This document shows, one piece after another, positions 16,183 through 43,679 of a DNA stretch of 64,000 nt. A model generated the notes under the pieces. That model saw only the letters and a program-made list of their open reading frames with translations. It was not told the origin of the DNA and ran no database searches. The translations under genes were made by a program, and so were the position numbers. Every line of letters starts with the position of its first letter. The stretch's first letter is position 1. The stretch is from the sequence record DRR378314_409; one strand, 5' to 3'.

Positions 16183-16189
16183 GGCCGTG

Positions 16190-17245: not shown

Positions 17246-17355
17246 ACCTAGCTCCGTTTACTGGCTGTGTTTCAGCAGAAGGTTTGACATCGTTTCGTGA
17301 TGTCTGTTTTCAAAATCCGGTTGACCGGAATATGCCGCCATATCATGTTGGCGTA

Positions 17356-18357
17356 ATGATAGACTTCTTTCACCATTTGACCAACGGTGTCCCATCGCCG
17401 CTTTTGCTTGCCTTTGTGGTCATGGGTATTGATCTGCTGGTTGGTGATCCAGCCTGGCTGTATGGACGTCTTCCGCACCCGATAGTTCCTATCGGGAATT
17501 TTATTGGTTGGCTGGAAACGCGGTTGAATAAGACGCAAGCTTCGCACCGGTCTCAATTTTTGGCCGGTCTGGTGACAAGCCTGTTGGTAATCCTCATTGT
17601 GGCTTTGATCGGTGTTGGTCTGACGATTTTGGCCGACCAGTTTTCTTTCGGTGGTATTTTGCTTGCTATCGCAGCCAGTAGCCTGATCGCCTGCAAGGGC
17701 TTGTATCAAGCGGTAGTCAAAGTCGAGGCTGGACTGACCCTCTCCCTTTCGCAGGGGCGTGAAGCGGTTAGCCATATTGTTGGCCGGGATCCTGAAAGTC
17801 TGGATGAGGCAGGTGTTGCCCGCGCGGCGATTGAAAGCCTTGCGGAGAATTTTCTGGATGGCACTGTATCGCCGATATTCTGGTTCCTGATTTTCGGCCT
17901 GCCCGGTCTGCTTGTCTACAAAACGGTGAACACTCTGGATAGCATGATCGGACATCGCAATGACCGATTTGAATATTTTGGTAAATTCGCGGCCCGCCTT
18001 GACGACGGATTGAATTATATACCCGCCCGGTTGACCGGTTTGTTGATTGCAGTCAGCAGTCTTTTCTTGAAAAGCGCCAATGTGACAGCTGCGTTTCGGG
18101 TCTTGTTTCAGGATGCGGGCTTGCATAAAAGTGTCAATGCGGGCTGGCAGGAGGCGGCAATGGCCGGCGCCCTTGGTATTTCGTTGGCGGGACCCCGCCG
18201 TTATGCCGGACAAACAACCGAAGATCACTGGATGAACGGGGGCGGGCGCAAAGACGCCACCGCCGAAGATATTCGGAATGCGCTTAAACTTTATTGGGTC
18301 GCCGCAGGGGGGCTGCTGCTGATCCTGTTGGTGCTGGCCGTTTTGCCCGTGTCCTAG
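17356..18357 (+). CDS. cbiB: Adenosylcobinamide-phosphate synthase CbiB (CobD in aerobic nomenclature)
   Basis: GDP...HP, IVGRD, AAIESLAEN, NTLDSMIG, AARLDD..NYIPARL, NAGW.EAAMAG; start estimated. Confidence 0.93.
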   Translation: MIDFFHHLTNGVPSPLLLAFVVMGIDLLVGDPAWLYGRLPHPIVPIGNFIGWLETRLNKTQASHRSQFLAGLVTSLLVILIVALIGVGLTILADQFSFGGILLAIAASSLIACKGLYQAVVKVEAGLTLSLSQGREAVSHIVGRDPESLDEAGVARAAIESLAENFLDGTVSPIFWFLIFGLPGLLVYKTVNTLDSMIGHRNDRFEYFGKFAARLDDGLNYIPARLTGLLIAVSSLFLKSANVTAAFRVLFQDAGLHKSVNAGWQEAAMAGALGISLAGPRRYAGQTTEDHWMNGGGRKDATAEDIRNALKLYWVAAGGLLLILLVLAVLPVS

Positions 18358-19811: not shown

Positions 19812-20446
19812 CAGAATTCAATACCAACCTGCGCCTTGACGCCTGAGCGGAAGGGATGCTTGATCTGGGTCATTTCTGTCACGAGATCGGCAACCTCAAT
19901 CAGTTCTTCCTTGGCGTTGCGGCCAGTGACCACCACATGCAGATTTTCAGGTTTGTTTTTCAGAAACTCCACAACTTCTTGAAGATCAATACTGTCATAG
20001 CGAAGGACAATATTCAGTTCATCCAGAACGATCATGTCATATTGCGGATTTTCGCCGCGGCAGGCCTCAATCATTTCCTTGGATTTAGCCCAGGCGTTTT
20101 CCGCTGCCCGAATATCCCTTTCCCGATCTTGCGTCTCCCAGGTGAAACCCTCTCCCATGGTGTGAATTTCAACTTGATCTGGAAACGCTTCCAGAACTTT
20201 GCGCTCCCCCGTTTCCCATTTGCCTTTGACATATTGCACTATCCCGACCGTCATATCGTTTCCGATGGCCCGTGCGGCGAGACCAAAAGCAGCGGTGGAT
20301 TTGCCTTTTCCTTTGCCTGTGTGAACGATCAGCAACCCTTTTTCGATGGTCTTGGTTGCCAGCATTTTGTCACGGGCAGCCTTTTTCTTGCGTGCTTTTT
20401 CGTTAGCTCGAGTGAGCTCTTGCGGGCTCAACTTTTTTTCTGTCAT
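19811..20446 (-). CDS. cobO: Cob(I)yrinic acid a,c-diamide adenosyltransferase
   Basis: HTGKGKGKSTAAFG, GEGFTW, LDEL, VTGR, KHPF..G..AQ.GIEF. Confidence 0.96.
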   Translation of the reverse strand: MTEKKLSPQELTRANEKARKKKAARDKMLATKTIEKGLLIVHTGKGKGKSTAAFGLAARAIGNDMTVGIVQYVKGKWETGERKVLEAFPDQVEIHTMGEGFTWETQDRERDIRAAENAWAKSKEMIEACRGENPQYDMIVLDELNIVLRYDSIDLQEVVEFLKNKPENLHVVVTGRNAKEELIEVADLVTEMTQIKHPFRSGVKAQVGIEF

Positions 20447-25341: not shown

Positions 25342-25369
25342 GATCCTCCGTCATGGAATATAATATTTG

Positions 25370-25538
25370 GATGGCAGGTCTCCTGACTTGCGAATGACAC
25401 CCTGATCGCCCTTCCCGTCGATAACAGTGGGATATGATCCTGGCTAATCGCTTACAGTTGCGGGGACAGTCACGGAATTGACCAAAATCGCACCGTGTTC
25501 CCTTTTAATCCCGAGCGGCTGCTCTGGAACCATCGCAA
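25370..25538 (-). promoter_or_regulatory. Cobalamin (AdoCbl) riboswitch upstream of cobW-cobN-cobO-cobQ
   Basis: Minus strand reads GGTTCC...AAAAGGGAACACGGTG...AATTCCGTGACTGTCCCCGCAACTGTAAG...CCACTG...GGGAAGG...AAGTCAGGAGACCTGCCA (B12 box). Confidence 0.95.
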
Positions 25539-25641
25539 CGGACGCTATGCTGCTTCACGCCCGGTGTCAATTCTTTAAGTGACAGCGCAGGTTACACGGA
25601 TTAAATTGCGCCAATCCTCGGTTGTTATAAAAGGTAAGTTC

Positions 25642-29656: not shown

Positions 29657-30457
29657 ATGGGCGGTCTCGCGCTCAGGGTCTTGTGCACCCTAATATGTCT
29701 GAGTTTCCTGCTGGTTGAAACTGCAACAGCGGAACGGCAGATTTTTCCAAGAGGCATTAAAGGAACAGACGATCGAAGTCGGGTTAATATTCGTGAATAT
29801 CCATGGAGTTCAATCGGTCGCCTGAATAAAGATGGTGGCTTTTGTACAGCCATTTTGATCGCGCCAAATCAGGTTTTGACGGCGGCTCATTGCTTTTGGA
29901 ACCGCAGAACTAACCGATGGTCTCTGGCTCGCTTTTATCATTTTGTCGTTGGGTATGAAAAAGGGTCGTTTTCGGCGCATGCGAAAGGGGTTTCCTATAT
30001 AACCCGCTACGGATCTTCACCCTCAAAAACCTTTCCGGAATTTCCAAGATCCGAAGACTGGGCGATTCTGACATTGGATCAGGCGTTGGGCTCCGAGTTT
30101 AAGCCCGTTCCAATTTTAAGTGAAACGCCAATTCTTAGAACCCTTCGGGCAAAACAGCCCGCAACGGTGAGTCAGGCCGGTTATAGCCGTGACTATGCCC
30201 ACGTGCTGACCGTCCATGCAAAATGCCAGATTACCTCAAAGCAGAAACCCTCCAAACAGTCGGATCCGGTTTTCGTTCATGATTGTGATGCGACACAGGG
30301 AGATTCCGGCTCACCCATTCTGCATTTTAACGGGAAGGAACCCGGCATAATCGGCATTCATTCTGCAACGTTAAAGTTGCAAAAAGGAAACACGTTGGGC
30401 CTTGCGGTCTCCAGCGGGCATTTTCGACGATTCGCTTATCCAGACTCCAACGACTGA
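29657..30457 (+). CDS. Exported trypsin-like (V8/glutamyl endopeptidase-like) serine protease
   Basis: Signal peptide; YPWSSIGRL, LTAAHC, DWAIL, AGY, CDATQGDSGSP (complete His-Asp-Ser triad). Confidence 0.9.
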   Translation: MGGLALRVLCTLICLSFLLVETATAERQIFPRGIKGTDDRSRVNIREYPWSSIGRLNKDGGFCTAILIAPNQVLTAAHCFWNRRTNRWSLARFYHFVVGYEKGSFSAHAKGVSYITRYGSSPSKTFPEFPRSEDWAILTLDQALGSEFKPVPILSETPILRTLRAKQPATVSQAGYSRDYAHVLTVHAKCQITSKQKPSKQSDPVFVHDCDATQGDSGSPILHFNGKEPGIIGIHSATLKLQKGNTLGLAVSSGHFRRFAYPDSND

Positions 30458-30668: not shown

Positions 30669-31013
30669 ATGGCAAATTCGGATAAATTTGACTCCGTTGA
30701 CGCTGCCAGGATCGAAGAAGTGTTGCAGGACGCAGATAATTCTGCGAGTGCGTCAGTAGTTTCTGGCGAAGATACTGCAGTGACTGACTTTCTGACAGAT
30801 AATCAGGAAGAACTTGTCGATCTGGATGCCTTGTTCGATGCTTTGAATATTGCTGCCGAAGATGGTATCGATGCGATGAGTTATGTGGAAGATGCAGAGC
30901 ACGGGAGTACATTGTCGATCCCCGGAGACGCCCTACCAGTTTCCGGGCTGGAGGATGTATCTGCTGTTGTCGCGGACCAGTTGAAGGACGGGATCATCTC
31001 AGACGAATCCTGA
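30669..31013 (+). CDS. Small acidic protein resembling a stand-alone type I secretion C-terminal target domain
   Basis: RBS GAGAGG, own terminator; about a quarter D/E, no Cys, no signal peptide; DTAVTDF...LVDLDALFD pattern and GIISDES end. Confidence 0.6.
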   Translation: MANSDKFDSVDAARIEEVLQDADNSASASVVSGEDTAVTDFLTDNQEELVDLDALFDALNIAAEDGIDAMSYVEDAEHGSTLSIPGDALPVSGLEDVSAVVADQLKDGIISDES

Positions 31014-31037
31014 CATAGGTATAACTGTGTCACCTGC

Positions 31038-31069
31038 AGGCTCCCGATTGTGAAACGGGAGCCTTTTTT
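31038..31069 (+). terminator. Intrinsic terminator after the small acidic gene
   Basis: AGGCTCCCG-loop-CGGGAGCCT followed by a T run. Confidence 0.8.
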
Positions 31070-33140
31070 ATTCCGTATTTGATGCTGCCTGTTTTAAGGA
31101 GTCTTCAAAGGCGGCGCCGGCTTTCGTTGCAAGAAACTGGTCAAATGCCTCTGCAATGGTCGCATCATATTTTTCCGGGTTCGCCCGAAATACTTCCATG
31201 GCTTCTTCAACGCTGATAGCGCTGCGGTAAGTCCGGGGGGAGACCCGGGCAACAAGGATATCAGCCATACCTAGCAAACGTGCCAATATATCAATTCGAT
31301 CTCCTTGAAGCTTATTGGGATAGCCGGAGCCGTCCTGGCGCTCATACATTTGACAGACAGCCGTGATAACCGTGTCATCAATTTCCATTTCCCGAAGCAA
31401 TGCTTCAGCTTGGGCAACATGACCCTGCATTATCTGTTTTTCAGATTCTGAAAGGCGTCCTTCTTTGGTTCTGATCTCAGCTGGGATAGATATTTTTCCA
31501 ATTTGCGAGAGGTTCGCCCCCGCATGCAGGCTTTCTTTTTGTTCTCGTGATAGTGGCAGAATATCAGCTACACTGCCGGTCAAGACACTCATATGGGCGG
31601 AATGACCTGCCAGATGGGGATCGTTGGCCTCCAACATGCGAAGGAGGATTGAAATGGTTTTCCGGCCCAAATCCTCTTTCTGGCGTTGAAAGGTGATATA
31701 GTCGGTGATATCGCCACTGACCGTTACAATACCTAGAAAAGAGCCATCATCATCAACTAACTGGGATTTTTCAACACGTACGATTTTGGATTTTTTCTGA
31801 AGTTCCAGTTCAAGGATCTCGTTCAGGGTTTCGCCAGTTTCCGCAACCTGATTGTCCATATCTGAGAATTTACGCGCTATTTTATCCCCAAATAGATCCC
31901 GGTCGGTTTTCCCCGGGATGCTCGCTTCCGGAAAGTCAACAAAACGTGCAAGGGCCGGGTTCGCATAGGCGTAAGTGCCATCGGGCCCCTTGAGGCTGAT
32001 TAAATCCTGAACAGTGTTATTAATATTACCAAGTAACCGCCGCTGCGCATTAATCCGCTGTGCAAGATCTTTATATTGATCTGCGAGGTTTTTAGCATTT
32101 TGGGTTTTCAGGCTGAACCAGATACCGCTGCCAATACTGCAAATGACGACAAAGACGCTGACGGCAAGACCCAGAACAACAAAACTGTAGGTATTGAGAG
32201 GTGCCAGTGCAGAATCCGTTGGGATTGTTTGCATCAGGACCAAACCGGTGTTTTCAATGTCACGGCCGACAGTATAAGTGGTTTGGTTCATCCCCTCAAA
32301 ATCCCGCTCACTGAAGGTTATGAGATCCTCCTCAAGCGAAAATGCCTGTTCTGTTTCCAAATACGGGGGACGGTTCGGAGAGACCTCATGATAGCCGTCA
32401 GCTGCTTTTTGAAAGATACGTGTTGCCTCGCCCGTTAAAGATACAGTGGTTCGAGCGAGAATGGCCGACAGCGGTCCGGCAGCGGGGACCGTCATCAGAA
32501 ACGCGCCAACCGGTTTATTGGTGCTTTCCGATAAAGGCTGGGCGGCATAAATTGGTATGATGAAGTCAATAACCACATTCCCGCCAACCAGATGAAAAGG
32601 CGAGGTAAGAAAATTGGCTTGATTATATTGCTCTTGGGCAAGGTCCCTTTGATTTTGCGTTAAACTAGGGGAATTACTGGACGCCAGATAGGCGCGCCCG
32701 TCCTGGCCAATCATGTAGGCGGCAATCAGATTATTTTCACTGACAAACTGATTGATTGCATTTTGCATATAGGGAAGCTGAGCGGAGAGAGCGGTTGACA
32801 GCTCTTGTCCTTCTAACGCATTGATTTCGGATGCAAACAGCTTGATGAGAGGATTTCCAACGAGAGCATTGGATTGCTGTGCAGCTTGTTCAATCCAGGT
32901 TTTTAAAACATCAACTTTTCCGTTTACCGTGATTTGTTGCCGGGTTTCCAGAGAGTTGAGAATTTCAGCCTTTTTGTCTGAAATAATGATGTAGGAAATC
33001 CACATGCAGGCAATCAGCAGGACGAGGACAGATCCGATTGCAACCAGCAAAGGCTTATTTCGGTTTGTGGACATTTTATTTCCGGAGTTTTTTTCCTCCA
33101 GAAACCGTTCCAATTCAAAATGGGCAGTTGTTTCGGTCAT
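31068..33140 (-). CDS. Membrane receptor: TM, periplasmic (Cache-like) domain, TM, PAS, degenerate HD-GYP
   Basis: Two TM helices, PAS (ISLKGPDG..AYANPA...PGKTD), HD-GYP fold with LSQIGK in place of LHDIGK, QMYERQDGSGYP, SPRTYR. Confidence 0.85.
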   Translation of the reverse strand: MTETTAHFELERFLEEKNSGNKMSTNRNKPLLVAIGSVLVLLIACMWISYIIISDKKAEILNSLETRQQITVNGKVDVLKTWIEQAAQQSNALVGNPLIKLFASEINALEGQELSTALSAQLPYMQNAINQFVSENNLIAAYMIGQDGRAYLASSNSPSLTQNQRDLAQEQYNQANFLTSPFHLVGGNVVIDFIIPIYAAQPLSESTNKPVGAFLMTVPAAGPLSAILARTTVSLTGEATRIFQKAADGYHEVSPNRPPYLETEQAFSLEEDLITFSERDFEGMNQTTYTVGRDIENTGLVLMQTIPTDSALAPLNTYSFVVLGLAVSVFVVICSIGSGIWFSLKTQNAKNLADQYKDLAQRINAQRRLLGNINNTVQDLISLKGPDGTYAYANPALARFVDFPEASIPGKTDRDLFGDKIARKFSDMDNQVAETGETLNEILELELQKKSKIVRVEKSQLVDDDGSFLGIVTVSGDITDYITFQRQKEDLGRKTISILLRMLEANDPHLAGHSAHMSVLTGSVADILPLSREQKESLHAGANLSQIGKISIPAEIRTKEGRLSESEKQIMQGHVAQAEALLREMEIDDTVITAVCQMYERQDGSGYPNKLQGDRIDILARLLGMADILVARVSPRTYRSAISVEEAMEVFRANPEKYDATIAEAFDQFLATKAGAAFEDSLKQAASNTE

Positions 33141-33832
33141 TTTTCAATCCTCGCTGCTTCATTAGCCGCGGTGTATTGACTTGGGATATGCGCCCAACGG
33201 GTGGTCTCATTTACCGAATAGAGGGGCACATAGTATTTGACGAATTTTTCTTCGAAAACCTTATCTGTCTGAGAATCCAGAATGTAAGATTTCCGGTTGA
33301 GCCGTAGGCTGAGAATGGTATGGGCAGTCCCGCGAAGAACATCCCGCGTGACAACAATTCGCATCTGGCTAGAGGTGAACCCCAATTCTCTCAGACTGAC
33401 GTATTTCATGATGGCGAAATCTTCGGAATCTCCACCAACTGTCATAAATTCAAGTGGCGGCGCCCAATAATCCTTTTGATGGTGGGTCACCCAGTCACTG
33501 TTATACTGCCACTTGTTCACAAAGCGATTGATCTGTCGCATGATGATACTTTTGGGGCTGTTTTCCAGTTCCTGAATTTTGGTGCGCCATAGGGTCATTT
33601 GTTGTGAGTTGCATTTCAGGATGTCTTGATCGCAAGCAGTTGCTGCCCGATTTAAGTCCCCAAAACTATCCATCGCCCGGCGCCATTGAGGCAGCGCCTG
33701 CAAATCACTCGATGCTATTTCCAATGTACCAAACAGACCATCGGCATTTTGCGCCAGAGCGGATCCGCTCATCGGTAAGAGGGGAGCCAGAAGTACGCCG
33801 CCCAAAAAGATGTATCTAAAGAGTTTCATCAT
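33137..33832 (-). CDS. LapG-family transglutaminase-like peptidase (BTLCP/C93), Cys-to-Ser variant
   Basis: Signal peptide; INRFVN..QY..D, DYW..P.EF, GGDSEDFAIMKY..L...G, AHTIL, YILDS. Confidence 0.88.
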   Translation of the reverse strand: MMKLFRYIFLGGVLLAPLLPMSGSALAQNADGLFGTLEIASSDLQALPQWRRAMDSFGDLNRAATACDQDILKCNSQQMTLWRTKIQELENSPKSIIMRQINRFVNKWQYNSDWVTHHQKDYWAPPLEFMTVGGDSEDFAIMKYVSLRELGFTSSQMRIVVTRDVLRGTAHTILSLRLNRKSYILDSQTDKVFEEKFVKYYVPLYSVNETTRWAHIPSQYTAANEAARIEK

Positions 33833-35157
33833 CTTTCCCGGAGTGCGTTATTCTTGGTTTTCAGGATTGGTTTCAGGATGTAGTCCAGAACAGATTTGTG
33901 ACCTGTTAATGTATCTACTGATGCAATCATGCCTGGCTTGATGGGAAAGATTTTCTCTCCACGCTTCAGAGAGGCTTCTTCGGTGCGCACAATAATTTTA
34001 TAGAATGTCTCACCGGTTTGCTCATTGACCGTTGTATCCGCGCTGATCCGCTCAACAGTTGCTGGCAGACCTCCGTAGATGGAAAAATCATAAGCTGTGA
34101 TCTTCACGGTTGCCTTTTGGCCAGGTCTGAGGAAGGCGATATCGGACGGACGGATCTTGGCTTCAACCAACAGGTTTTCTTCAATAGGGACAATTTCAAC
34201 GATATCCTGACCAGGTTTTACAACGCCACCAATAGTCTGGATTTTCAGCTCTTTAACTTCCCCTTTGAGCGGCGAGCGAACATCCGTTCGGGTGACCCGG
34301 TCGCGCGCTGCCAAAATGGTTTGGCGAACAGATTCATAATCTGCACGGGCAATACTCAATTCCTGGGAGGCCAGACTTCTGAAGTTCAGAATTTTCTCTT
34401 CAATCCGCTGGTTGGCTTCCTGCAGGGCGCCTCTCGCTCGGGGCAGGGCGAGTTCAGAGGCGGAAATCTGCCCTTTAAGATCATTGGCTTCGCGCTTCAG
34501 TTTCAGAAGCTGGACTTTTGGGACAATTCCTTTGACCGCGAGCGGCTCTGTAATTGCGAGTTCTTCATTTACAAGGGCTAAACTGGATTTTAATTGCCTT
34601 AGGCGGCCGTCAATTTCGGCGATTTCCTGTTTTCGTTGCTGGGCCTGTTGCCGCAGGATCGAAATTTGAGACTGCAGCTCTGCTTGGCGGGCGTTGAAAA
34701 GGTTTTGCTCCCGAATGGAAATTTGTTGTCCTTCTGCGAGCAGCTCAGGCGGATAATCGACGCCTTTTCCTTCTGCCTCAGCGCTCAAGCGGGCAATTTT
34801 ACCCATCAGGTTTAGATATTTGGATTCAATTTCGCCAACCCGGGCTGCGAAGCCCGTATCATCAATTCGCAGAAGGATCTGCCCTTTCTCAACAATTTCG
34901 CCTTCACGCACCAGCAGTTCCTTGAGAATACCCCCCTCCAGATTCTGGATGATCTGTACCTGAGATGAGGGAATAACTTTACCGTCACCCCGCGTCACTT
35001 CATCAAGGATTGCATTGTCTGCCCAGATAAAGGCCGCGACAAAAAAAGCGATGACGCCAAATAGCAAAAGCATCGACTTGGGGTTCGGGCCCTGCATTTT
35101 GGCCGCAACCACATCCGAGGCAAAATCGGTATCATTCCATTCCGTTTGACTAGCCAT
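33829..35157 (-). CDS. HlyD-family T1SS periplasmic adaptor (LapC-like)
   Basis: GKVIPSSQVQIIQNLEGGI, RSP..G.VK, TIGGVVKPG, VKITAYDFSIYG, PGM, YILKPI...ALRER. Confidence 0.93.
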   Translation of the reverse strand: MASQTEWNDTDFASDVVAAKMQGPNPKSMLLLFGVIAFFVAAFIWADNAILDEVTRGDGKVIPSSQVQIIQNLEGGILKELLVREGEIVEKGQILLRIDDTGFAARVGEIESKYLNLMGKIARLSAEAEGKGVDYPPELLAEGQQISIREQNLFNARQAELQSQISILRQQAQQRKQEIAEIDGRLRQLKSSLALVNEELAITEPLAVKGIVPKVQLLKLKREANDLKGQISASELALPRARGALQEANQRIEEKILNFRSLASQELSIARADYESVRQTILAARDRVTRTDVRSPLKGEVKELKIQTIGGVVKPGQDIVEIVPIEENLLVEAKIRPSDIAFLRPGQKATVKITAYDFSIYGGLPATVERISADTTVNEQTGETFYKIIVRTEEASLKRGEKIFPIKPGMIASVDTLTGHKSVLDYILKPILKTKNNALRER

Positions 35158-35193
35158 TCTTACGGTCTCTTCCTGTCAAATTCACGATCGCAC

Positions 35194-37515
35194 TCACTGC
35201 GTTTTGCCGGTTTTTTTGGTTGCGCGCTGTCCCACTTTCAGAATTTCATCCCTTGGCCCGTCCGCAACCACTTTGCCATGTCCAAGAACGATGATGCGAT
35301 CAACGACCGAGAAGAGCGAGGTTCGATGCGTGACCAACAGCAATGTCTTGCTCTGTGCAAATTTTTTCGGTTTAGAGATGAACTGACGTTCCGAATTTAG
35401 ATCCATGGAACTGGTCGGTTCATCAAACATGAGAACGGGCGGATTGGGAAGCAAAGCCCGGGCAATACCCATGGACTGTCTTTGCCCACCGGATAATGTA
35501 GCGCCTTTCTCCCCAACTTTCAGATCATAGCCATGGGGGTGGCGACTGACAAAATCATGAACACCAGCCAATTTTGCGGCCTTGAGGATCATTTCATCGT
35601 CTGCTTGCGGATGGCCCATGGTGATATTCTGGCGGATCGTCGCCTGGAACAGCGTTACGTCCTGCATGACGCTGCCGACAGAGCGCCGAATATCAGAGGG
35701 ATCGATTTGACGAATATCGGTGCCGTCGATGAGAACAGCGCCTTCATCAGGCTCATACAAATTAATTAAAAGCCGGGAAATAGTCGTTTTTCCAGATCCG
35801 ACCGGGCCAATAATGGCAACCTTTTCACCAGGTTGAATTTTGAAGGATACGTTTGAAAGGGCTGGGATGTCAGTACCGGGATATTTAAATGTGACATCTT
35901 TGAATTCAATTTCACCATGAATGTTAGGCCGGCTCAGCTGGCGCTTTTCAGCGGCTCTTTCCACGGGCAAGGCCATAATCTGGTTTAACCCTTTCAAGGC
36001 AACCATCGCTTGGTTGAGCCGCGTTAATAGAGCTGCAATCTGACCCAGAGGGGCCATGGTCCGGCCGGTTAAAATGGTGGATGCAATGAGAGCGCCAATT
36101 GTCATCGTGCTATCGGGTTGCGACATAAGATAGACGCCATAAACAACCACAAGAACGGTTACCAACTGCATTGCAGCGGCAGAAAGGTTGATGCCCAATG
36201 TTGCAAAGAAACGTGAAACCACGCTGGTTTGCGCGGTCTGACCGACAAAACGCTCCCACTCCTTTTGCATATGGCCTTCAACACCAAGGCTTTTGACCGT
36301 ATCAAGTGCAGAGATCGTCTCAATAATCACGCCATGTTTTTGAGAGCTTTCCTCAGTATTTTTGGCAACTGAGCGTCGCATGGGCAGTTGCAGCAATAGG
36401 CCCATAATAATGACAACAGGAACCGCAACAGCCGGGACGATGGCGATCGGTCCACCAATTAAGTAAATAATTAGCAAAAATACGCCCAGGAAGGGCAGAT
36501 CAACAAGCGCAGTAACGGTCGCAGAAGTAAAAAAATCGCGAAGCGTTTCGAATTCCCGCAAGTGGTTGGCAAATGCCCCGGCAGATTGGGGGCGTGCTTT
36601 CACCTGGATATTGAGGACTTGTTCAAAAATCCGGCTGGACAGAAGAACGTCGGCCCTTTTTCCCGCATTATCGACAAAATAGGCTCGCAAGGTTTTCAAA
36701 AGAAGATCAAAACAGATAACGGTGATGACGCCAAAAGCCAGGACTGAAAGCGTTTCCAGTGCCTTGTTGGGAACAACACGATCATAAACATTCATGATGA
36801 AGAGCGGGCTCGCAATCGCAAAGCTGTTAATCAGAAAGGCAGCCAGGATCACTTGCGAATAGGTTGGCCAAAATTGCCACATGGTTCCCCAGAACCAAGA
36901 CCCTTTGCGCTGGTACAGTTTTTCATCTCTTTCGATGCGGAACTGGAAGTTGGGGCGAACAAAGATCGCGTATCCAGCATATAGGTCTTCCAGTTCTTTT
37001 AAGGGAATAACTTGATGCCCTTCACCGGTTTCCGGGAAAATAACCTCAGCTTCTTTATCGGTTTTTTTCAGCAGAACACAGGCTTTTTTCTCTTTGAGTA
37101 GTAAAACAGTGGGCAGGACAACTGATGGAATTTTATCCAGTTTTCGATTTGTAATGCGGGCACTGATCCGAACTTTTTCTGCGGCCCTAATAAAAAGATT
37201 TGGGGTTAGCCGATTCTCTTCCAGCGGGAGCCCATAAACCAGCGCATCTTCGGTTCGTGGGTCTTCAAAAATCTTTGTCAATGCGACGAGGCAGCCCAGC
37301 AAAGGATCTTGGTCGGTTCTTTTGATATCTGAAAGCGGGATATCCCAGTTGTCTTCCTGTTCTGCTTTTTCGAGGGACGGCTCAGCAGCGTTTTCAATGA
37401 CAGGGTCGTCGGTTGCCGAGTTGTCAGCGATTGATCGCAGTCTTTCTGTCGTTGATACGTCTATTGCGCTTGGGTCTTCTGTTGCCCCACCCGCCATAGT
37501 TTGCTTATCTGTCAT
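35194..37515 (-). CDS. T1SS permease/ATPase with C39-like domain (LapB/LssB-like)
   Basis: DPLLGCL...GLP N-domain, SWFWG, LFIMNVYDRVVPN, DLPF, GPVGSGKTT, LSGGQRQ, FDEPTSSMD, VTHR; start estimated. Confidence 0.93.
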   Translation of the reverse strand: MTDKQTMAGGATEDPSAIDVSTTERLRSIADNSATDDPVIENAAEPSLEKAEQEDNWDIPLSDIKRTDQDPLLGCLVALTKIFEDPRTEDALVYGLPLEENRLTPNLFIRAAEKVRISARITNRKLDKIPSVVLPTVLLLKEKKACVLLKKTDKEAEVIFPETGEGHQVIPLKELEDLYAGYAIFVRPNFQFRIERDEKLYQRKGSWFWGTMWQFWPTYSQVILAAFLINSFAIASPLFIMNVYDRVVPNKALETLSVLAFGVITVICFDLLLKTLRAYFVDNAGKRADVLLSSRIFEQVLNIQVKARPQSAGAFANHLREFETLRDFFTSATVTALVDLPFLGVFLLIIYLIGGPIAIVPAVAVPVVIIMGLLLQLPMRRSVAKNTEESSQKHGVIIETISALDTVKSLGVEGHMQKEWERFVGQTAQTSVVSRFFATLGINLSAAAMQLVTVLVVVYGVYLMSQPDSTMTIGALIASTILTGRTMAPLGQIAALLTRLNQAMVALKGLNQIMALPVERAAEKRQLSRPNIHGEIEFKDVTFKYPGTDIPALSNVSFKIQPGEKVAIIGPVGSGKTTISRLLINLYEPDEGAVLIDGTDIRQIDPSDIRRSVGSVMQDVTLFQATIRQNITMGHPQADDEMILKAAKLAGVHDFVSRHPHGYDLKVGEKGATLSGGQRQSMGIARALLPNPPVLMFDEPTSSMDLNSERQFISKPKKFAQSKTLLLVTHRTSLFSVVDRIIVLGHGKVVADGPRDEILKVGQRATKKTGKTQ

Positions 37516-38092
37516 TATGTGTTTCCATATCCCGACACGCATCTGCTTGAACTCTAAACCCAGCCGGCAGTTCAGCAGGAGCGCAGCCCCATTAATTGGT
37601 CTCAAATCTGAAGGCAGTACACTGCCTTGGAGTTGGACCTTACCCCAATTGCTTCCAAGTCCTTATGAAACTTGGAAATGTACACTCATGGTTGCATTCT
37701 ATTGATATATAAAAAGCCATTTTAGTGAAAAACATGTTAACAAACCTAATTCTGTCAAAATATTCGCCATAGGCAAAGTTGAATTCTTGATTATGGTTAA
37801 TTTCAAGTGATGTCTTCGGACCTGTTGGCGGGGTAGAGATCTCTGAATATAAATATCCTATCTTGATTAGAAGTAACTAAGGTTGAAAAGAAACAAGGGT
37901 TTAAGTTCACAAGTGCTAGCCTTATTCGTTCTGTTTTTTAGAGAGAATTTCAAATTCTAGAATGCAAATCACTCCCGAATCTCAGTTTTCAGTATGAGGG
38001 AGAGTTGTGAATACACTTTCTGTGAAGAATAGGGCGCGATTGTGAATGTTTATAGGCAGGCTAAATCGTTGCAAAAAAAACACAAAATCGCT

Positions 38093-38107
38093 TTAAGCGA
38101 GATTTAA
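38093..38107. promoter_or_regulatory. CtrA-consensus box in the lapB/tolC divergent region (putative)
   Basis: Perfect TTAA-N7-TTAA (TTAAGCGAGATTTAA); near-match TTAA-N7-TTGA at 38119-38133. Confidence 0.45.
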
Positions 38108-38298
38108 TCGGGGAAGTGTTAAGTCCGAGTTGATTATATTCGGCTGCATACGATACTATCCTGCAAAATCCACGCTTTACGCGAAATTTTCTTTACGTTT
38201 ATTAAAGGAAATTGGTTGATATATTTAATAAATATAGACAAAAATCCGTATGCGACAGAGTACGGTCTTCGGAGATTTAAGATGATTGGGAGAGGGGT

Positions 38299-39639
38299 AT
38301 GATTTCCAGTTTGGGCTCAAAGAGTGCTCGAAAGTTAGTGGCAACGAGTGCACTGGCAGCCATTTTGGCGAGCGCTTCCATTTTATCACCAGCTGTTGCA
38401 GCATCATTGAAAGATGCAGTCCAGACAACGGTTAATAGCTATCCTGAAATCGGCGAGGCATCTGCCAATCGTCGGGCCATTGATCAGGAACTTGAGCAAG
38501 CACACGGACTATATTACCCATCTGTTGACCTGGCTCTAGGGGGCGGTAAAGAATGGACGGATACGGTCACCATTGATGATGAGTGGTTGACCCGGACCGA
38601 AAGTAGTCTCTCACTTTCACAGACATTGCTGGATGGCGGTGCACGATCTGCCGAGGTTGATCGGCAATCCAGTCGGGTTGATGGCGCGGCGTATCGGGTG
38701 CGGGAGCGGGCTGAAGCTATCAGCCTTGATGCAGTGCAGGCTTATCTTGATGTTTTGAGAAACCAGGAAATTGTGAGCCTGGCTCAGGAAAATCTGGAAA
38801 TTCACAAACAGACACTTTCTGAAATCAGTGACCGTGTTGATGCCGGACAAAGTGGTGTTGGGGATGCTCAGCAGACCGACGCCCGCGTAGCTGCTGCCGA
38901 AGCAACTGTTGCCGAGACATTACGTCAGCTTGATGCTTCCGAAATCGCATATCGTCGCTTGGTCGGTGAATCGCCAGTAGATTTAACGCAGCCAGCTTTT
39001 AATGATGGCGTTCTTCCAGAGCAACTTGAAGATATTGTTGCAATCGGTCTGGAAAGTAATCCGGATGTGCGCTTTGCCAAGGCCGATGTAAACACAGCGG
39101 ATGCGGAAATTCGCGCAGCTGAAGCAAATTTCTATCCAACAGTTGCCCTGGAGCTGGATGCTAGCGCTGACAATGATATTGACGGTGTCGAGGGTCACAA
39201 TGATGACTTCACTGCAATGGTACGACTGCGCTACAATCTTTACAGAGGTGGGATTGACGTTGGACGTCAGCAAGAAGCGATCGAAAGAAGCGCGGAAAGC
39301 AAGCAGCGTCAGGCTCGTTTTGAGCGTTTGGTTGAAGAGGAAATCCGTCAAGGTTGGAGTATAATGGCCCGGTCCAAAGCTCGTGCTGCCGCACTGGGGG
39401 ATCAGGTTGTTGCGAATGGACAGGTTGCATCAACCTATCGTCAGGAATTCCAGATTGGTCAACGTGATCTTCTCGACATGTTGGATGCCGATAATGAACT
39501 ATTCAACTCACGAACTGCCTTGGCAACCGTTGAATATGCGGTTTTGTTCTCAAAATATAGATTGCTTGCGACTATGGGCCGTTTGAACAGCACGCTCGGC
39601 GTAGTTTTGCCAGAAGAAGCTCTACCTGGTCGGAACTAA
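38299..39639 (+). CDS. TolC-family T1SS outer membrane protein (LapE-like)
   Basis: Signal peptide; YYPSVDL, Q.L.DGG, YLDVL, YNLYRGG, Y..EF.IGQR.LLD.LDA.NE. Confidence 0.92.
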   Translation: MISSLGSKSARKLVATSALAAILASASILSPAVAASLKDAVQTTVNSYPEIGEASANRRAIDQELEQAHGLYYPSVDLALGGGKEWTDTVTIDDEWLTRTESSLSLSQTLLDGGARSAEVDRQSSRVDGAAYRVRERAEAISLDAVQAYLDVLRNQEIVSLAQENLEIHKQTLSEISDRVDAGQSGVGDAQQTDARVAAAEATVAETLRQLDASEIAYRRLVGESPVDLTQPAFNDGVLPEQLEDIVAIGLESNPDVRFAKADVNTADAEIRAAEANFYPTVALELDASADNDIDGVEGHNDDFTAMVRLRYNLYRGGIDVGRQQEAIERSAESKQRQARFERLVEEEIRQGWSIMARSKARAAALGDQVVANGQVASTYRQEFQIGQRDLLDMLDADNELFNSRTALATVEYAVLFSKYRLLATMGRLNSTLGVVLPEEALPGRN

Positions 39640-39658
39640 TTCAACGATTACTTAATTT

Positions 39659-39689
39659 AAAAGCCTCGCAGTTTTGCGAGGCTTTTTTT
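39659..39689. terminator. Bidirectional intrinsic terminator between tolC and lapG
   Basis: AAAAGCCTCGCA-loop-TGCGAGGCTTTT with flanking A and T runs. Confidence 0.85.
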
Positions 39690-39704
39690 ATTGGAAAAGC
39701 TGGT

Positions 39705-40340
39705 TCAGGTTGGTTTGTAACGCCACCAGCCTTTTTCGTTCAGGGCATATATGGGACGGTAATGGCGAATTCGCTTTGCGTCAATAACGAGACCAATCTG
39801 ATTGTCCAGAACCATCTTTTTATTTTCAAAATTGACCGTGAGTATGGCGTGGGCAATTCTAAGGTTCATGTCCTGCAGAACAATGATTTTCATGTCATCC
39901 GCACTCCAGCCGAGTGCACGCAGAGTGAAATATTTAACAATTGCGTAGTCTTCACAATCCCCAAATTTGGCAAAAAACTCTTTAGGGATCTCCCAGTAAT
40001 CCTTGATACCCCAATTGATGGGGTCCAGTATATATCGGTAGAGATTTAGATATGAGTTGACCTTGGCGAGTTGAAATTTTTTGGGTTGATCTTTCAGCTG
40101 GTCGATCAGCTCTTTCCACTTGTCATAAGCACAAGCGTTCAACTGACCGCTCCCACAGGGACCGGGTTCATTTTTGTAAGAATTCAAAACCTTGCGCCAT
40201 TTGGGGAACGGCTTCAGGTCCGTATGAGTGTAGGCCTTGAAGCCGAAAATATCCGGGCTTTCCGCTGAAGCATGCGGGGGACTGAAAATGAGACATCCCA
40301 GTATTAAAGACGCTTTCAGTAATGTTTTCATACTTGCCAC
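39705..40340 (-). CDS. LapG-family transglutaminase-like cysteine peptidase (BTLCP/C93), canonical
   Basis: Signal peptide; DYWEIPKEF, GDCEDYAIVKY..L...G, AHAIL, VLDN (Cys-His-Asp triad intact). Confidence 0.93.
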   Translation of the reverse strand: MASMKTLLKASLILGCLIFSPPHASAESPDIFGFKAYTHTDLKPFPKWRKVLNSYKNEPGPCGSGQLNACAYDKWKELIDQLKDQPKKFQLAKVNSYLNLYRYILDPINWGIKDYWEIPKEFFAKFGDCEDYAIVKYFTLRALGWSADDMKIIVLQDMNLRIAHAILTVNFENKKMVLDNQIGLVIDAKRIRHYRPIYALNEKGWWRYKPT

Positions 40341-40513
40341 AAGTTAAGATGGGTTGCCATTTCCAAGCAAATCTAGACGTAAAATGGAAAATTCATTCTA
40401 ATAGTCGTCTAAAAAGGTAAACAACCATTAACTCTCTATTTAAAAACTTATGAAATTATTGTGAGTTAAAAGCTAACCCGTTACAATACATAAATTTTTG
40501 ACGACCGGCGTCA

Positions 40514-42640
40514 GTGACACAGGAAGCAGTAATGTCTGATATCAACGAAGAAATCAGTGCGACAAAGCGAACCCATAAAGTCATTTGGTTTGCATTTATT
40601 CTGCTATTTGCCGTCGTCGTTGGCGGCGTATGGGGAACGATTTCTTTCGTTAATCAACAGCGCGAGCGGGACCTTCAGAATTGGGAAATCCGTCTTGGCA
40701 TTGTTGCTGATAGCCGCCTTGCCAGTGTTGAAGAGTGGCTGGCCAAGCAAAAAGACGCAATTCTTTCTTTGGCTGAAAACGAAAGTCTTCAAGTCTATTT
40801 AACACAGTTGGTGATCGATACAGAAGACAACGGATCAAGAATAGAAGAGGTCCCCGAAGCTGGTTATCTGACAAATCTTTTAAATAATCATGCGGTCATC
40901 AGCGGGTTCTGGGAAGCGCCGGAACCGGAAATTCGAGCGAATGTTGCAAGACCGGGAAAAGCAGGCATTGCGCTAACCGATGCTACTGGAAAGCTGCTTG
41001 TCTCCAGTGGCAATATGCCTCCGATGACACCGGAAATCCGTGCAGCAATGGCGGAAGCGGACAGTGGGGTTTCAGCCGTTATTGATGCGTATGAAGGATT
41101 GGATGGCGAGCCGATCATGGGCTTTGTACAACCGGTCTATGCAATTCAGCAAGATAGTGACGCGGAAAATATTATTGGCTTTATTGTCGGTGTGCGAACA
41201 ATAGGGAGATCTTTGTTCCCCCGGTTGTTTCAACCAGGAGATACGCATCAAACCAGTGAGACATATCTTGTTCGGCAGAATGGAAACCTTACAGAATATG
41301 TTTCGCCGTTGGCGGATGGGACAGGTCCACTGAAGCGCCGCCTGACAACGGATGATGGCCGCGCGGCCTCTTTCGTGATAAGCAAACCCGGTGCGTTTGC
41401 AACCAAGTTTAATTATCTTGGAGATGAGGTTCTGGTCACCGGGCGCGCTGTTACCGGCGCCCCTTGGTATCTGGTGCGAAGCATTACTACTTTTGAGGCT
41501 CTGTCAGAATCCAAAGATCGCCTGAACACCATGTTAGGCGTGTTCCTGCTGCTGATCCTAGGTGTTACCGGGACGGTCGTTGCGGTTTGGCGGCATGGTA
41601 CATCCATTCGAGCTGCAGAACTTGCTGAAAAATATAAGAAAACCGCCGATGATTTACAGGAACAGTCTAATTTTTTGAATGTCGTGACCGATAGCCAGCC
41701 GACGGGTATTGCTGTTTTCAGTGATCGGAACCGATTTACTTTTGCAAACAAAGTCGCGGCAGATGCGGTGGAAATGCCTAAAGACGCTGTTGTCGGACGG
41801 CGGATTACAACTGTCTATCCTCCTGAGGTTGCGGAACAGATCCAGGAAATGTTGCATGAAGCGGGAAAAGATAATCAAAACAAGAGCCAGCTTATTGAAG
41901 TTCTGCAAGGTGACGAAGATCATATCTGGAAATCCGATGTTATTCCCCTTGGTGCGGGCAGAGATCAAATCAATAACTTTCTTGCGGTTTTCCAAGACAT
42001 TACAGATGTTGTAAATGAACGCGAGCAGCGTGAAGCGGTTCTTCGAAATCTTGTTTCCACTCTGGTTGCCTTTTTGGATCGGCGTGATCCATATTCTGCC
42101 AACCAATCTTCGAGGGTGGCGGAGGTTGGGGTTGCGATTGCAGAGGAATTAGGCAGTGCAGAACGTGTTATTCGCACCGTCGATATTACAGGTAATCTTA
42201 TGAACCTTGGTAAGATCCTGGTGCCGACTGAAATTCTCACCAAGGCTGGCGATTTGACAGCAGATGAAATGGAAATTGTCCGGGATAGTTTGTTTGCAAG
42301 TGCAGATCTATTGGACGATGTGAAGTTTAACCTACCGGTGACTGAAACTCTCCGTCAGCTTCAGGAACGATGGGATGGGACTGGTAAACCACGGGGCTTG
42401 AAAGAGGCTGCAATTAATGAAGCTGCTCGCATTATCATGGTGGCCAACGCTTTTGTTGGTATGGTCAGCCCGCGGGCTTACCGTGATGCCCATGATTTCA
42501 GCAAGGCGGTCACAATTTTGATGGAGGATGCGGACAAGAAATTCGACCGCCGTCCGGTCAGTGCACTGGTCAATTTCTTGGACAATCGTGGGGGAAGAGA
42601 CAAGTGGGCCCACTTCGCCGTTCCTCCTGAAAGCAACTAA
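40514..42640 (+). CDS. Second membrane receptor: TM, periplasmic (Cache-like) domain, TM, PAS, degenerate HD-GYP
   Basis: Two TM helices, PAS, RDPYSANQS, LMNLGK for LHDIGK, QLQERWDGTGKP for HHERxDGxGYP, SPRAYR. Confidence 0.85.
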   Translation: MTQEAVMSDINEEISATKRTHKVIWFAFILLFAVVVGGVWGTISFVNQQRERDLQNWEIRLGIVADSRLASVEEWLAKQKDAILSLAENESLQVYLTQLVIDTEDNGSRIEEVPEAGYLTNLLNNHAVISGFWEAPEPEIRANVARPGKAGIALTDATGKLLVSSGNMPPMTPEIRAAMAEADSGVSAVIDAYEGLDGEPIMGFVQPVYAIQQDSDAENIIGFIVGVRTIGRSLFPRLFQPGDTHQTSETYLVRQNGNLTEYVSPLADGTGPLKRRLTTDDGRAASFVISKPGAFATKFNYLGDEVLVTGRAVTGAPWYLVRSITTFEALSESKDRLNTMLGVFLLLILGVTGTVVAVWRHGTSIRAAELAEKYKKTADDLQEQSNFLNVVTDSQPTGIAVFSDRNRFTFANKVAADAVEMPKDAVVGRRITTVYPPEVAEQIQEMLHEAGKDNQNKSQLIEVLQGDEDHIWKSDVIPLGAGRDQINNFLAVFQDITDVVNEREQREAVLRNLVSTLVAFLDRRDPYSANQSSRVAEVGVAIAEELGSAERVIRTVDITGNLMNLGKILVPTEILTKAGDLTADEMEIVRDSLFASADLLDDVKFNLPVTETLRQLQERWDGTGKPRGLKEAAINEAARIIMVANAFVGMVSPRAYRDAHDFSKAVTILMEDADKKFDRRPVSALVNFLDNRGGRDKWAHFAVPPESN

Positions 42641-42659: not shown

Positions 42660-43679
42660 CTAAAGAATAGGGCCGGCCTGTAGAGCGGCCGGGCCCGTCA
42701 GGATGAGTTTAACCAACTCACTTTGTCGACTGGTATCTGTTTTGCGGAAAATCTGACGGAGTTGGGAGCGGACGGTATGCATGCTGACCCCCCATTCTTC
42801 AGCAAGGTCATCCAGCTTGCTGCCATTTGTCAATCCGAGCGCCAGTCGTCCTTCTGCAGGGGTTAAAGCATAAAGGCGGCAAATTGTGTCAATGGACAGC
42901 TCAACCGCCTCGCTTGGATCGGAAATAAAGAGAACAGCGCCTTTTCCAGCTACACCTGTTCCAATAGGCGCCACCATGACAGTCAGCGCGGTATCACTGT
43001 CTTCGCGTGATACGGACATGGAAAAATCGCTTTCCATGTTTTCACCTTCGGCAGATAACGCATTTTCCAACAATTCGGTAAGTTGTTTATTTTCTTTAAC
43101 GTTGCTGGCCCGACAGACGCGATTGCTATCCAAAAGGAGCCCGTCTTTTCGATCCAGAAATGCTTTTGCCTTCCCGTTCAAAAACAGAACTCTGGAAGCT
43201 GACGTCACCAAAATAACGCCAAGTGGCAGCCTGTTAAGGACAGCCGTTGCAGATTCAAGCAACGGTGTCGTGTCGGGCGATCTACCTTGACCGCTTTGGC
43301 GTTCAATTGCACTGATCAGGTTCCGGGCAAGACCATTTGCCGTTAATTGATTTCGGATCAAATAATCCTGTGCACCATTTCGAATAGCAAGCTTTCCAAT
43401 ATTTTCTTCATCATCGGTCAGCAGAACAACAGGTGTTTCGGGGAAAACGGAGCGAAGTGATTTTAAGGTTTCAAAATCGGTATCGCCCGTACTATCAGCG
43501 TCTAATAGCACCACATTCGCGTTTGCGAGGCTGCGTTGATTAAGCACTGCATCTGCATCGGGCAGGTGCATAAGTTCCAAAATCGGCTTGGTGACATTTG
43601 AAATCAGCCAGCTGAGTTGCTGTGCATCACCTTCTTTTCGTCCGATGAAAAGAATTTTACAGGTCGGTGCATCGTTCAT
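42660..43679 (-). CDS. Atypical receiver, PAS-like and LuxR HTH transcriptional regulator
   Basis: REC fold (VVLLD, PVVLLT, GAQDYL), PLGVILV PAS-like segment, LTPAE...G...TVRSQL.QIF.KT...RQ.ELV. Confidence 0.88.
   Translation of the reverse strand: MNDAPTCKILFIGRKEGDAQQLSWLISNVTKPILELMHLPDADAVLNQRSLANANVVLLDADSTGDTDFETLKSLRSVFPETPVVLLTDDEENIGKLAIRNGAQDYLIRNQLTANGLARNLISAIERQSGQGRSPDTTPLLESATAVLNRLPLGVILVTSASRVLFLNGKAKAFLDRKDGLLLDSNRVCRASNVKENKQLTELLENALSAEGENMESDFSMSVSREDSDTALTVMVAPIGTGVAGKGAVLFISDPSEAVELSIDTICRLYALTPAEGRLALGLTNGSKLDDLAEEWGVSMHTVRSQLRQIFRKTDTSRQSELVKLILTGPAALQAGPIL

Follow-up and report, generated by a model that had tools for sequence, protein, structure and literature searches.

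The Lap system, which comprises LapD, LapG and the adhesin LapA together with the transporter LapBCE in Pseudomonas fluorescens Pf0-1, is a textbook case of inside-out signalling by cyclic di-GMP (c-di-GMP). A second variant, DvhD/DvhG/DvhA with the transporter DvhEBC, is known from Desulfovibrio (Nitratidesulfovibrio) vulgaris Hildenborough (PMC13090378). Its receptor, DvhD, has SQ in place of the HD motif of the HD-GYP domain and other residues in place of the His-His pair, and it binds c-di-GMP without hydrolysing it. The protease DvhG is membrane-anchored (most DvhG orthologues have signal peptides), and is inactive as the variants C317A and D316A/E318A. The substrates of LapG and DvhG carry a DP motif followed by [T/A/P]AAG (PMC13090378). 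The contact between DvhG and the dCache domain of DvhD has been described as an AF3 model only, in which a dCache helix meets the back of the protease (PMC13090378). In the present study we analysed a Lap-type locus found at positions 31068-42640 of a 64,000-nucleotide stretch of DNA from the sequence record DRR378314_409 (this whole stretch is hereafter called the window). The locus encodes a type I secretion system (T1SS) and two LapG-family proteins, G1 and G2, each with a receptor of its own, D1 and D2. One of these proteins, G1, has lost the catalytic cysteine and is probably a pseudoprotease and a ligand of D1.

The seven genes of the locus form a lapB-lapC-G1-D1 operon on the minus strand, followed by lapE on the plus strand and by a divergent pair composed of G2 (minus strand) and D2 (plus strand). 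Profile scores identified the transport components of a Lap-type T1SS, namely (i) an LssB/LapB-type (LssB-subfamily) ABC transporter encoded by lapB (35194-37605, minus strand; TIGR03375, 946.1 bits over residues 100-791, cut-off 693.1) with a C39-like N-terminal domain (PF03412, 23 bits, cut-off 22), (ii) a HlyD-family periplasmic adaptor encoded by lapC (33829-35157, minus strand; TIGR01843, 408 bits, cut-off 208.65) and (iii) a TolC-family outer-membrane channel encoded by lapE (38299-39639, plus strand; TIGR01844, 296.7 bits, cut-off 225.15; Pfam OEP, 153.9 bits). The start codon of lapB is uncertain, since the gene product has 803 aa when read from TTG in the window and 770 aa when read from ATG in its orthologue in a Sneathiella metagenome-assembled genome (MAG; locus L029). 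ATGA overlaps, read directly from the sequence, join lapC to G1 (33829-33832, where the lapC stop overlaps the G1 start) and G1 to D1 (33137-33140), by which the G1/D1 module is translationally coupled to lapB-lapC. A first-pass annotation, made from the letters of the window alone, had named the three transport components, the two LapG-family proteins, the two receptors and both overlaps, and all of them were confirmed.

The locus shares with the Pf0-1 Lap system the LssB-type ABC transporter, the HlyD adaptor, the TolC channel and a BTLCP protease with a calcium motif, and with the Dvh system the order of T1SS genes, LapG-like gene and dCache-PAS-HD-GYP receptor. It differs from the former in having two modules instead of one, and from the latter in its second, distantly related receptor/protease pair, in the location of the adhesin gene outside the locus, and in its host. 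For D1, D2 and G1 the closest relatives come from Sneathiella limimaris (79%, 89% and 76% identity, respectively), which indicates that the window comes from a Sneathiella-like alphaproteobacterium.

Both G1 (33137-33832, minus strand) and G2 (39705-40340, minus strand) are members of the Peptidase_C93/BTLCP family (PF06035, 56.7 and 62.2 bits, respectively; cut-off 27), and they show 31% identity to each other. In contrast to LapG of Pf0-1, they miss the NCBIfam LapG equivalog cut-off of 320 bits (78 bits for G1 and 93 bits for G2). G2 has the features of a periplasmic cysteine protease with a complete Cys-His-Asp triad and the Asp/Glu calcium motif (FGDCEDY), and GDCEDYAIVKYFTLRALGW is intact in all six G2 sequences compared (the window and five Sneathiella genomes). 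In G1 the His and Asp of the triad are present and the catalytic Cys is replaced by Ser (GGDSEDF), which distinguishes it from the active DvhG. The calcium-binding Asp and Glu that flank the nucleophile (D316 and E318 of DvhG) are kept in both proteins, as D-S-E in G1 and D-C-E in G2. This agrees with the first-pass annotation, which had proposed one active and one altered protease. The N-termini of G1 and G2, as read from the sequence, resemble signal peptides, in contrast to the membrane anchor of DvhG.

The substitution is not confined to the window. Ser occupies the catalytic position in the operon-linked G1 orthologue of 5/5 Sneathiella genomes; two of these orthologues read GGGSRDF, i.e. 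they have also lost the calcium motif, and in one the catalytic His is replaced by Gln. We aligned G1 of the window with the 68 database proteins most closely related to it (47-76% identity). In these 69 sequences Asp186 is invariant, and Ser136 and His171 are each conserved in at least 90%; the 23 displayed rows hold 22 Ser, 1 Ala and no Cys. The calcium motif is kept in most of the 69 proteins and is lost (G-S-R) in a Sneathiella subclade. As many as 49 columns of the alignment are invariant, at identities down to 47%. Around the lost nucleophile, W123, G133 and G134 are invariant, and S136, D138, F139 and A140 are conserved in at least 90% of the sequences, which favours the view that the cleft of G1 is still in use. 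The next 50 relatives (36-44% identity) were aligned without the short fragments P0274 and P0285; of the 26 rows displayed, 10 have Ser (9 metagenomic sequences and G1 of the window), 1 has Thr and 15 have Cys.

Other residues were found at the same position in more distant G1 orthologues: Pro in Oceanibacterium, Thr in MAG G011, and Ala in MAGs G014 and G015 (the second LapG-like match of G015, L116, which has an in-frame TAG, was left out of the orthologue alignment). As these forms retain His and Asp, the conservation of the latter two residues is no argument for catalysis. The codon at the lost nucleophile is TCC or TCA in the Ser forms (TCC, a single step away from TGC, in G1 of the window), CCG in the Pro form and ACG in the Thr form, whereas the Cys orthologues use TGC or TGT. 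This pattern fits a single TGY-to-TCY change, after which other one-step changes occurred. That the Ser stems from a sequencing error was considered and rejected, because Ser is conserved in dozens of independent assemblies. As judged from these alignments, the altered protease is not a one-off and represents a conserved lineage lacking the catalytic Cys. We regard G1 as a member of the LapG family by descent and fold, and do not count it as an active LapG protease.

The loss of the Cys was compared with the presence of the second module in a survey of 15 genomes, in which D1- and D2-type genes (the latter defined by identity of at least 40%) were located together with the neighbouring LapG-family genes. 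The G1-type protein lacks the Cys in 10 of the 11 genomes (the window included) that hold a D2-type receptor, and retains it in 5/5 genomes without such a receptor (Inquilinus, Fodinicurvata, an Inquilinaceae MAG, Pelagibius marinus, with two such loci, and MAG G012). G1 shows 42-53% identity to the Cys-bearing proteins of these single-module genomes, compared with 31% to G2. This indicates that G1/D1 is the ancestral DvhG/DvhD-type module, to which G2/D2 was added. D1 and D2 share only 20% identity, so they represent old lineages; a recent tandem duplication was rejected on the basis of this value and of the 31% identity of G1 and G2. Thus, of the duplicated layout described in the first-pass annotation, the two modules stand, whereas the term duplication is misleading. 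Two further observations were made in the surveyed genomes. In P. marinus (G008; L043/L044, L091, L096, L099-L101) the two separate D1-type/LapG loci both encode Cys-bearing proteins, and three further BTLCP genes of other types are present. In the neighbourhood of the D2-type gene of G015, no LapG, T1SS or adhesin genes were found.

The two modules also evolve at different rates. The identity to the orthologues encoded in the Sneathiella genome G005 is 72% for D2 and 76% for G2, compared with 57% for D1 and 64% for G1, and the D2 family is larger than the D1 family (344 versus 65 matches at E <=1e-10). In terms of sequence relationships, D1/G1 is the DvhD/DvhG-type module, and D2/G2 is part of another clade, which is larger and evolves more slowly. 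In two genomes, Sneathiella glossodoripedis (G001:C9:139246-141334) and MAG G014 (G014:C3:585815-587873), two overlapping frames take the place of a single D2-type frame, which may reflect a frameshift or a draft-assembly error.

D1 (31068-33140, minus strand; 690 aa), a DvhD-type receptor of the inner membrane, is composed of a transmembrane segment (TM), a dCache domain, a second TM, a PAS domain and a degenerate HD-GYP domain (Pfam PAS_4, residues 377-480; HD_5, 499-662). D2 (40514-42640, plus strand; 708 aa) belongs to a distinct clade and has a D1-like architecture (PAS_4, 393-499; HD_5, 519-679). The TM segments of both receptors were read from the sequence, and the two proteins are collinear over their full length (E 2e-35). 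D1 matches all three DvhD crystal chains: 9rc0 (PAS/HD-GYP, E 2.6e-48), 9rbz (HD-GYP with c-di-GMP, E 5e-38) and 9rc2 (dCache, E 4e-20, covering D1 residues 64-313). As a single sequence, D2 matches 9rc0 (E 2.2e-39) and 9rbz (E 8e-35), and a profile of its 21-member family matches 9rc0 with E 8e-64; neither the sequence nor the profile matches the dCache chain 9rc2, which is matched by D1 only. The Pfam family dCache_1 (PF02743) is matched by 11/21 members of the D2 family, but not by D2 of the window, and the periplasmic domain of D2 is therefore a putative dCache domain on indirect grounds (its family members and the alignment with D1). The kinship with DvhD is borne out directly by the 9rc0 matches of both receptors; the dCache part of the comparison proposed in the first-pass annotation held directly for D1, and for D2 only through its relatives and its alignment with D1.

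Both HD-GYP domains are degenerate. D1 has SQ at the HD motif and M-Y at the His-His pair, both motifs being lost in DvhD as well, while GYP is kept; S545 and Q546 are invariant in 13 family members. In D2 the HD motif reads MN, the His-His pair L-Q and the GYP motif GKP, i.e. the domain is fully degenerate. These replacements indicate that D1 and D2 are c-di-GMP receptors, not enzymes, and an activity as HD-GYP phosphodiesterases was rejected, since the metal ligands are lost. The 11 DvhD residues named as c-di-GMP contacts were placed on sequence alignments, using a chain offset derived from the residue numbers given in PMC13090378. By this mapping, six of the 11 appear identical in D1 (P567, L577, K582, Y621, R650 and Y652) and six in D2 (Y523, P567, L577, M646, R650 and Y652). 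In each of the two families the equivalents of P567, L577, R650 and Y652 show conservation of at least 90% or full invariance; in the 21-member D2 family those of L577, M646 and R650 are invariant and that of Y652 is at least 90% conserved. The bridging-site residues K520 and R569 of DvhD seem not to be kept, which is a difference from the Dvh system: K520 corresponds to N in D1 and to R in D2, and R569 to E in both. With the contact residues partly retained, the degenerate HD-GYP domains of D1 and D2 may both bind c-di-GMP.

The AF2 model of G1, calculated from the 69-sequence alignment, had a mean pLDDT of 89.3 and a pTM of 0.82, and its best match in the PDB was LapG of Legionella pneumophila (4fgq, E 3.4e-12, TMt 0.70). 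Taken together with the layout shared by 29/39 genomes of the order (see below), the ATGA overlaps and the 49 invariant columns, this match to LapG argues that G1 is retained and is not decaying. We also predicted the complex of the periplasmic part of D1 (residues 55-316) with G1 (residues 28-231). The prediction, which ran without the family alignments, scored 0.73 in all three runs, compared with 0.00 for the best of three controls; the mark applied in this test is reached by 51/78 solved complexes and by 2/108 mismatched pairs. The runs shared at least 90% of their contacts, with a partner pLDDT of at least 83. The predicted interface is formed by residues 96-131 and 199-203 of D1, and 37-52, 121, 123 and 204-222 of G1. 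It includes residues that are invariant in D1 (L101, F102, E105, Q121, Q201; beside the contacts A103, L122, P123, F132, P196) and in G1 (L47, W50, W123, R212, A214, H215; beside the contacts E38, L44, W213), and it resembles the AF3 model of the DvhD dCache helix with DvhG. It is unlikely that the prediction merely reproduces a known structure, since no DvhD-DvhG complex has been solved. The model supports the binding of G1 to the periplasmic domain of D1, and thereby, for this one pair, the association of receptor and LapG protein on which the first-pass annotation relied.

The seven-gene layout of the window recurs in the Sneathiella MAG (L029, 57-76% protein identity) and in Oceanibacterium (L039), which shows that it is not a chance arrangement. 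The survey was extended to 39 genomes of the GTDB order around S. glossodoripedis (G001), with a phylum sample of 201 genomes for comparison. LapG-family matches were detected in 39/39 genomes of the order, and two or more in 34/39. In 29/39 the coordinates place two copies 6.3-7.0 kb apart on one contig. Of the five single-copy genomes, three are assemblies of 2.4-2.6 Mb, and in two the match lies no more than about 100 bases from a contig end. In the window both receptor genes adjoin a LapG-family gene, and this adjacency is conserved in the relatives.

The LapD-specific domain LapD_MoxY_N (PF16448) was detected in 0/39 genomes of the order, i.e. among the relatives of the window organism, whereas the same search, serving as a positive control because the built-in one was silent for this domain, found it in 47/201 genomes of the phylum sample, mostly in open frames of about 640-680 aa. 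In contrast to LapD of Pf0-1, neither D1 nor D2 contains LapD_MoxY_N, HAMP, GGDEF or EAL domains (Pfam), so neither is a canonical LapD; what is shared with the Pf0-1 system, as with Dvh, in which LapD is likewise lacking, is the inside-out logic exerted through a degenerate c-di-GMP enzyme domain. All eight open reading frames (ORFs) of at least 600 aa in the window were annotated (MMPL, HrpB helicase, CbiG/methylase, CobN, D1, LapB, D2 and aldehyde dehydrogenase), and there is no GGDEF/EAL protein and no giant adhesin among them, as the first-pass annotation had noticed. Its reading required that no canonical lapD accompany these proteases elsewhere and that the link between receptor and protease be conserved, and the results for the order agree with it on both points. 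The sequence data thus indicate that a DvhD-type receptor is the standard partner of the LapG family across this whole alphaproteobacterial order, and the interpretation of the two-module layout as an HD-GYP-based inside-out adhesin switch is supported.

Candidate substrates were found in 5/5 Sneathiella genomes, each of which encodes an RTX/VWA/Calx-beta candidate adhesin of 1346-1558 aa with T1SS-143 repeats and a retention-module-like N-terminal domain. The candidate of G005 (L109:739-5397, 1552 aa), for example, carries a FecR-like N-terminal domain, Calx-beta, Cadherin_4, VWA and Big_9 domains and RTX repeats (T1SS_rpt_143, 128 bits, cut-off 66). In all five proteins (L109, L110, L111, L104 and L106) the retention-like domain is followed by an acidic stretch, by P-E-A-G (4/5) or P-Q-A-G (1/5), and by a Gly-rich linker. 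The acidic stretch contains a DP motif in 4/5, the exception being G002. The N-terminal order of retention-like module, helix, DP motif, putative x-A-G site and Gly-rich linker is the same as in the Pf0-1 Lap system.

A small acidic ORF, P0314 (30669-31013, plus strand; 114 aa), is convergent with D1. It matched no Pfam or NCBIfam family and gave no usable match in the Atlas, and it is conserved beside D1 in L029 (52% over 75 aa, E 4e-27). P0314 and the C-terminus of the G005 candidate adhesin have a stretch TDF..DLDALFD.L.I in common (pairwise E 6e-4), and both end with SDES. As a lead, P0314 is possibly a small substrate of the same T1SS.

A different genetic context was observed in a distant alphaproteobacterium, MAG G013 (L124, G013:C50:11000-30999, approximately 9819-20000), where a divergent G2/D2-type pair lies beside genes for a Sel1/PG-binding protein, a ShlB-type TpsB and an exoprotein with a two-partner secretion (TPS) domain. 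This is reminiscent of Pseudomonas aeruginosa, in which LapG cleaves the TPS adhesin CdrA (PMC4694147). The TPS link was observed only in this distant relative, whereas in the window and in the order G2/D2 lies beside lapE.

The remaining features of the locus concern its possible regulation. The divergent lapB operon and lapE are separated by an intergenic region of 693 bp (37606-38298), in which the ORF list contains no other gene and which is presumed to hold the promoters. This region matched no Rfam family, and Rfam revealed no c-di-GMP riboswitch in the locus. Promoter- and terminator-like matches in the locus did not exceed the shuffled expectation, with the sole exception of a palindromic terminator-like hairpin (39659-39686) between the convergent lapE and G2 genes, whose 12-bp stem includes 6 GC pairs and is flanked by a preceding A-run and a following T-run. 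Convergent with D2 is a conserved gene (42660-43679, minus strand) for a response-regulator-like protein with a C-terminal LuxR/FixJ-type helix-turn-helix domain (Response_reg, 20 bits, below the cut-off; weak NCBIfam matches of the GacA/FixJ type), which has a counterpart at the corresponding place in L029 with 85% identity over the C-terminal 137 aa; it is possibly a transcriptional regulator of the locus. On the other side of the locus lies a further conserved neighbour, a gene for a trypsin-like serine peptidase (29657-30457, plus strand), 60% identical at the same position in L029. Much of the window between 5758 and 25226 is occupied by a cobalamin biosynthesis cluster that contains cobW-cobN and is preceded by a cobalamin riboswitch (25356-25549, minus strand; 113 bits).

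Pseudoenzyme regulators such as the inactive rhomboids (iRhoms) illustrate how a dead paralogue with retained binding surfaces can be kept under selection beside an active one. The reading that we favour here, with somewhat better than even confidence, is that G2/D2 is the working release switch, that G1/D1 is a retained non-catalytic receptor-ligand module, and that G1 acts on the adhesin without cutting it. Judging from family membership, LapB, LapC and LapE would export an RTX adhesin encoded elsewhere, and the N-terminal retention module of this adhesin would stay plugged in LapE. By analogy with LapD/LapG and DvhD/DvhG, G2 would be held by D2 when c-di-GMP is bound to the degenerate HD-GYP domain of the latter, and at low c-di-GMP it would cut the periplasmic anchor of the adhesin. 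D1 may capture or release G1 according to c-di-GMP. The most likely action of free G1 would be to occupy the retention module and the cleavage site in competition with G2, so that the decision to release the adhesin would gain a further c-di-GMP input or a threshold.

G1 has the LapG fold and a conserved cleft, and its predicted docking surface for the D1 dCache domain is kept. With a conserved cleft around the lost nucleophile, substrate binding by a c-di-GMP-gated competitor of G2 seems the most economical use of the protein. The decoy or two-input circuit mentioned in the first-pass annotation remains an inference. Only tentatively, and with clearly less confidence than in the non-cutting role as such, do we go further and suggest that G1 is a c-di-GMP-gated 'anti-protease' under the control of D1, and that the two receptors make up a two-input thresholded (ultrasensitive) switch, which arose as the lineage acquired a second module and turned the ancestral protease into its competitor.

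Several observations weigh against a non-cutting G1/D1 module beside a working G2/D2 switch. In G013, the eleventh genome with a D2-type receptor, both modules are present and the Cys of the G1-type protein is intact. Moreover, the genomes in the 10/11 versus 0/5 table of Cys loss are mutually related and do not represent independent events. The absence of LapD and the identity of the adhesin were both deduced from relatives of the window organism. None of the five candidate adhesins exceeded the retention_LapA cut-off of 50 (the scores did not exceed 39 bits in the genome search or 21 bits in hmmscan), and their putative G2 site, P[E/Q]AG, differs from [T/A/P]AAG, so that cleavage by G2 stays presumptive. 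The complex test, which covers the D1-G1 pairing only, also passes close relatives of a true partner and 7/44 blind neighbouring gene pairs; a pass can tell neither which family member binds nor whether binding depends on c-di-GMP. Finally, G1 of the Sneathiella clade has a well-conserved Ser, His and Asp, which is compatible with a Ser-His-Asp hydrolase.

This last point leads to a rival explanation, in which G1 is still a protease that employs a Ser-His-Asp triad, and the locus encodes two active proteases with their own receptors and perhaps different substrates or cleavage sites. The levels of conservation of Ser136, His171 and Asp186 given above fit this proposal, as do the calcium-motif Asp and Glu kept in G1 of the window, the conserved cleft residues, and the existence of a second, non-Sneathiella metagenomic clade with GDSEDF. 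We nevertheless consider it rather unlikely. Replacement of Cys by Ser in papain- and transglutaminase-like folds usually abolishes activity. Orthologues at the same operon position that have Pro, Thr or Ala still keep His and Asp; in addition, the calcium motif is missing from the GGGSRDF subclade, one member of which has also exchanged its His, whereas DvhG is inactive when its calcium-binding residues are altered (D316A/E318A; PMC13090378). The same erosion of the calcium motif and of the His in some lineages, together with the missing catalytic residue and the faster evolution of module 1, could instead mean that the ancestral module survives in D1/G1 only as a relic without function, in the course of being lost. 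This we regard as very improbable, because the frames are open and without internal stops across the order (34/39 genomes hold at least two copies), the 69-sequence alignment has 49 invariant columns even at identities down to 47%, both partners conserve the receptor interface, and translational coupling is kept; the split frames observed concern D2-type genes (G001 and G014) and none were found in D1 or G1.

The modules might also serve different adhesins or routes, with D2/G2 acting on another class, e.g. a CdrA-like TPS adhesin, and with non-proteolytic release of the T1SS adhesin. The gene context in G013, where the TpsB and exoprotein genes lie only about 2-4 kb from the G2/D2-type pair, would fit such a division, as would the cleavage of CdrA by LapG (PMC4694147) and the much greater size of the D2 family. 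Across the Sneathiella order, however, G2/D2 directly adjoins lapE, and the TPS domain (PF05860) was found in 0/5 Sneathiella genomes, which is weak evidence, as the built-in control of this search was silent. The loss of the G1 Cys only where a G2/D2-type module exists fits a functional take-over better than independence of the two modules, and a division between adhesins seems to us improbable. A further possibility is that D1/G1 is an outside-in or coincidence sensor, in which G1 would be a periplasmic co-receptor (e.g. for Ca2+ or adhesin occupancy) whose binding alters D1 on the cytoplasmic side and the way in which D1 interacts with c-di-GMP enzymes, with no direct role in cleavage. The D1-G1 interface retained in the predicted complex, the retention of the PAS domain and of c-di-GMP-site residues in D1, and the calcium motif kept in most G1 sequences are consistent with this role, and bidirectional signalling has been described for LapD (PMC5231407). 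On the other hand, the calcium motif is lost in a Sneathiella subclade, and a sensor of this kind leaves the conservation of the G1 cleft unexplained; we therefore judge it quite unlikely.

In the full-text literature searched, DvhD and DvhG appear together only in PMC13090378 and PMC10990149. The word 'Alphaproteobacteria' is absent from the main text of the former and from the latter, as far as they are accessible, and the main text of PMC13090378 likewise contains neither 'paralog' nor 'duplicat'. According to the searchable text, the DvhD-type variant is thus in print only for Desulfovibrionales, though PMC13090378 gives a class-level distribution in Figure 9b and lists of neighbourhoods in its supplements, which may include other classes. 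Searches of the full-text literature revealed no LapG pseudoprotease, no related catalytically inactive LapG paralogue, and nothing that joins Sneathiella and c-di-GMP.

The locus indicates that two DvhD-type modules can be wired to one secretion system, and that an ancestral protease can survive as a conserved, probably receptor-bound pseudoenzyme. The existence of a conserved protease lacking its catalytic Cys suggests a new, non-cutting layer of control over the moment at which cells detach from surfaces. The idea is directly testable, as there are culturable Sneathiella species and a published P. fluorescens reconstitution system. If it is true that G1 acts as a competitor or a shield, it would be the first pseudoprotease reported in the Lap pathway, and would represent a new way of setting thresholds in second-messenger output.

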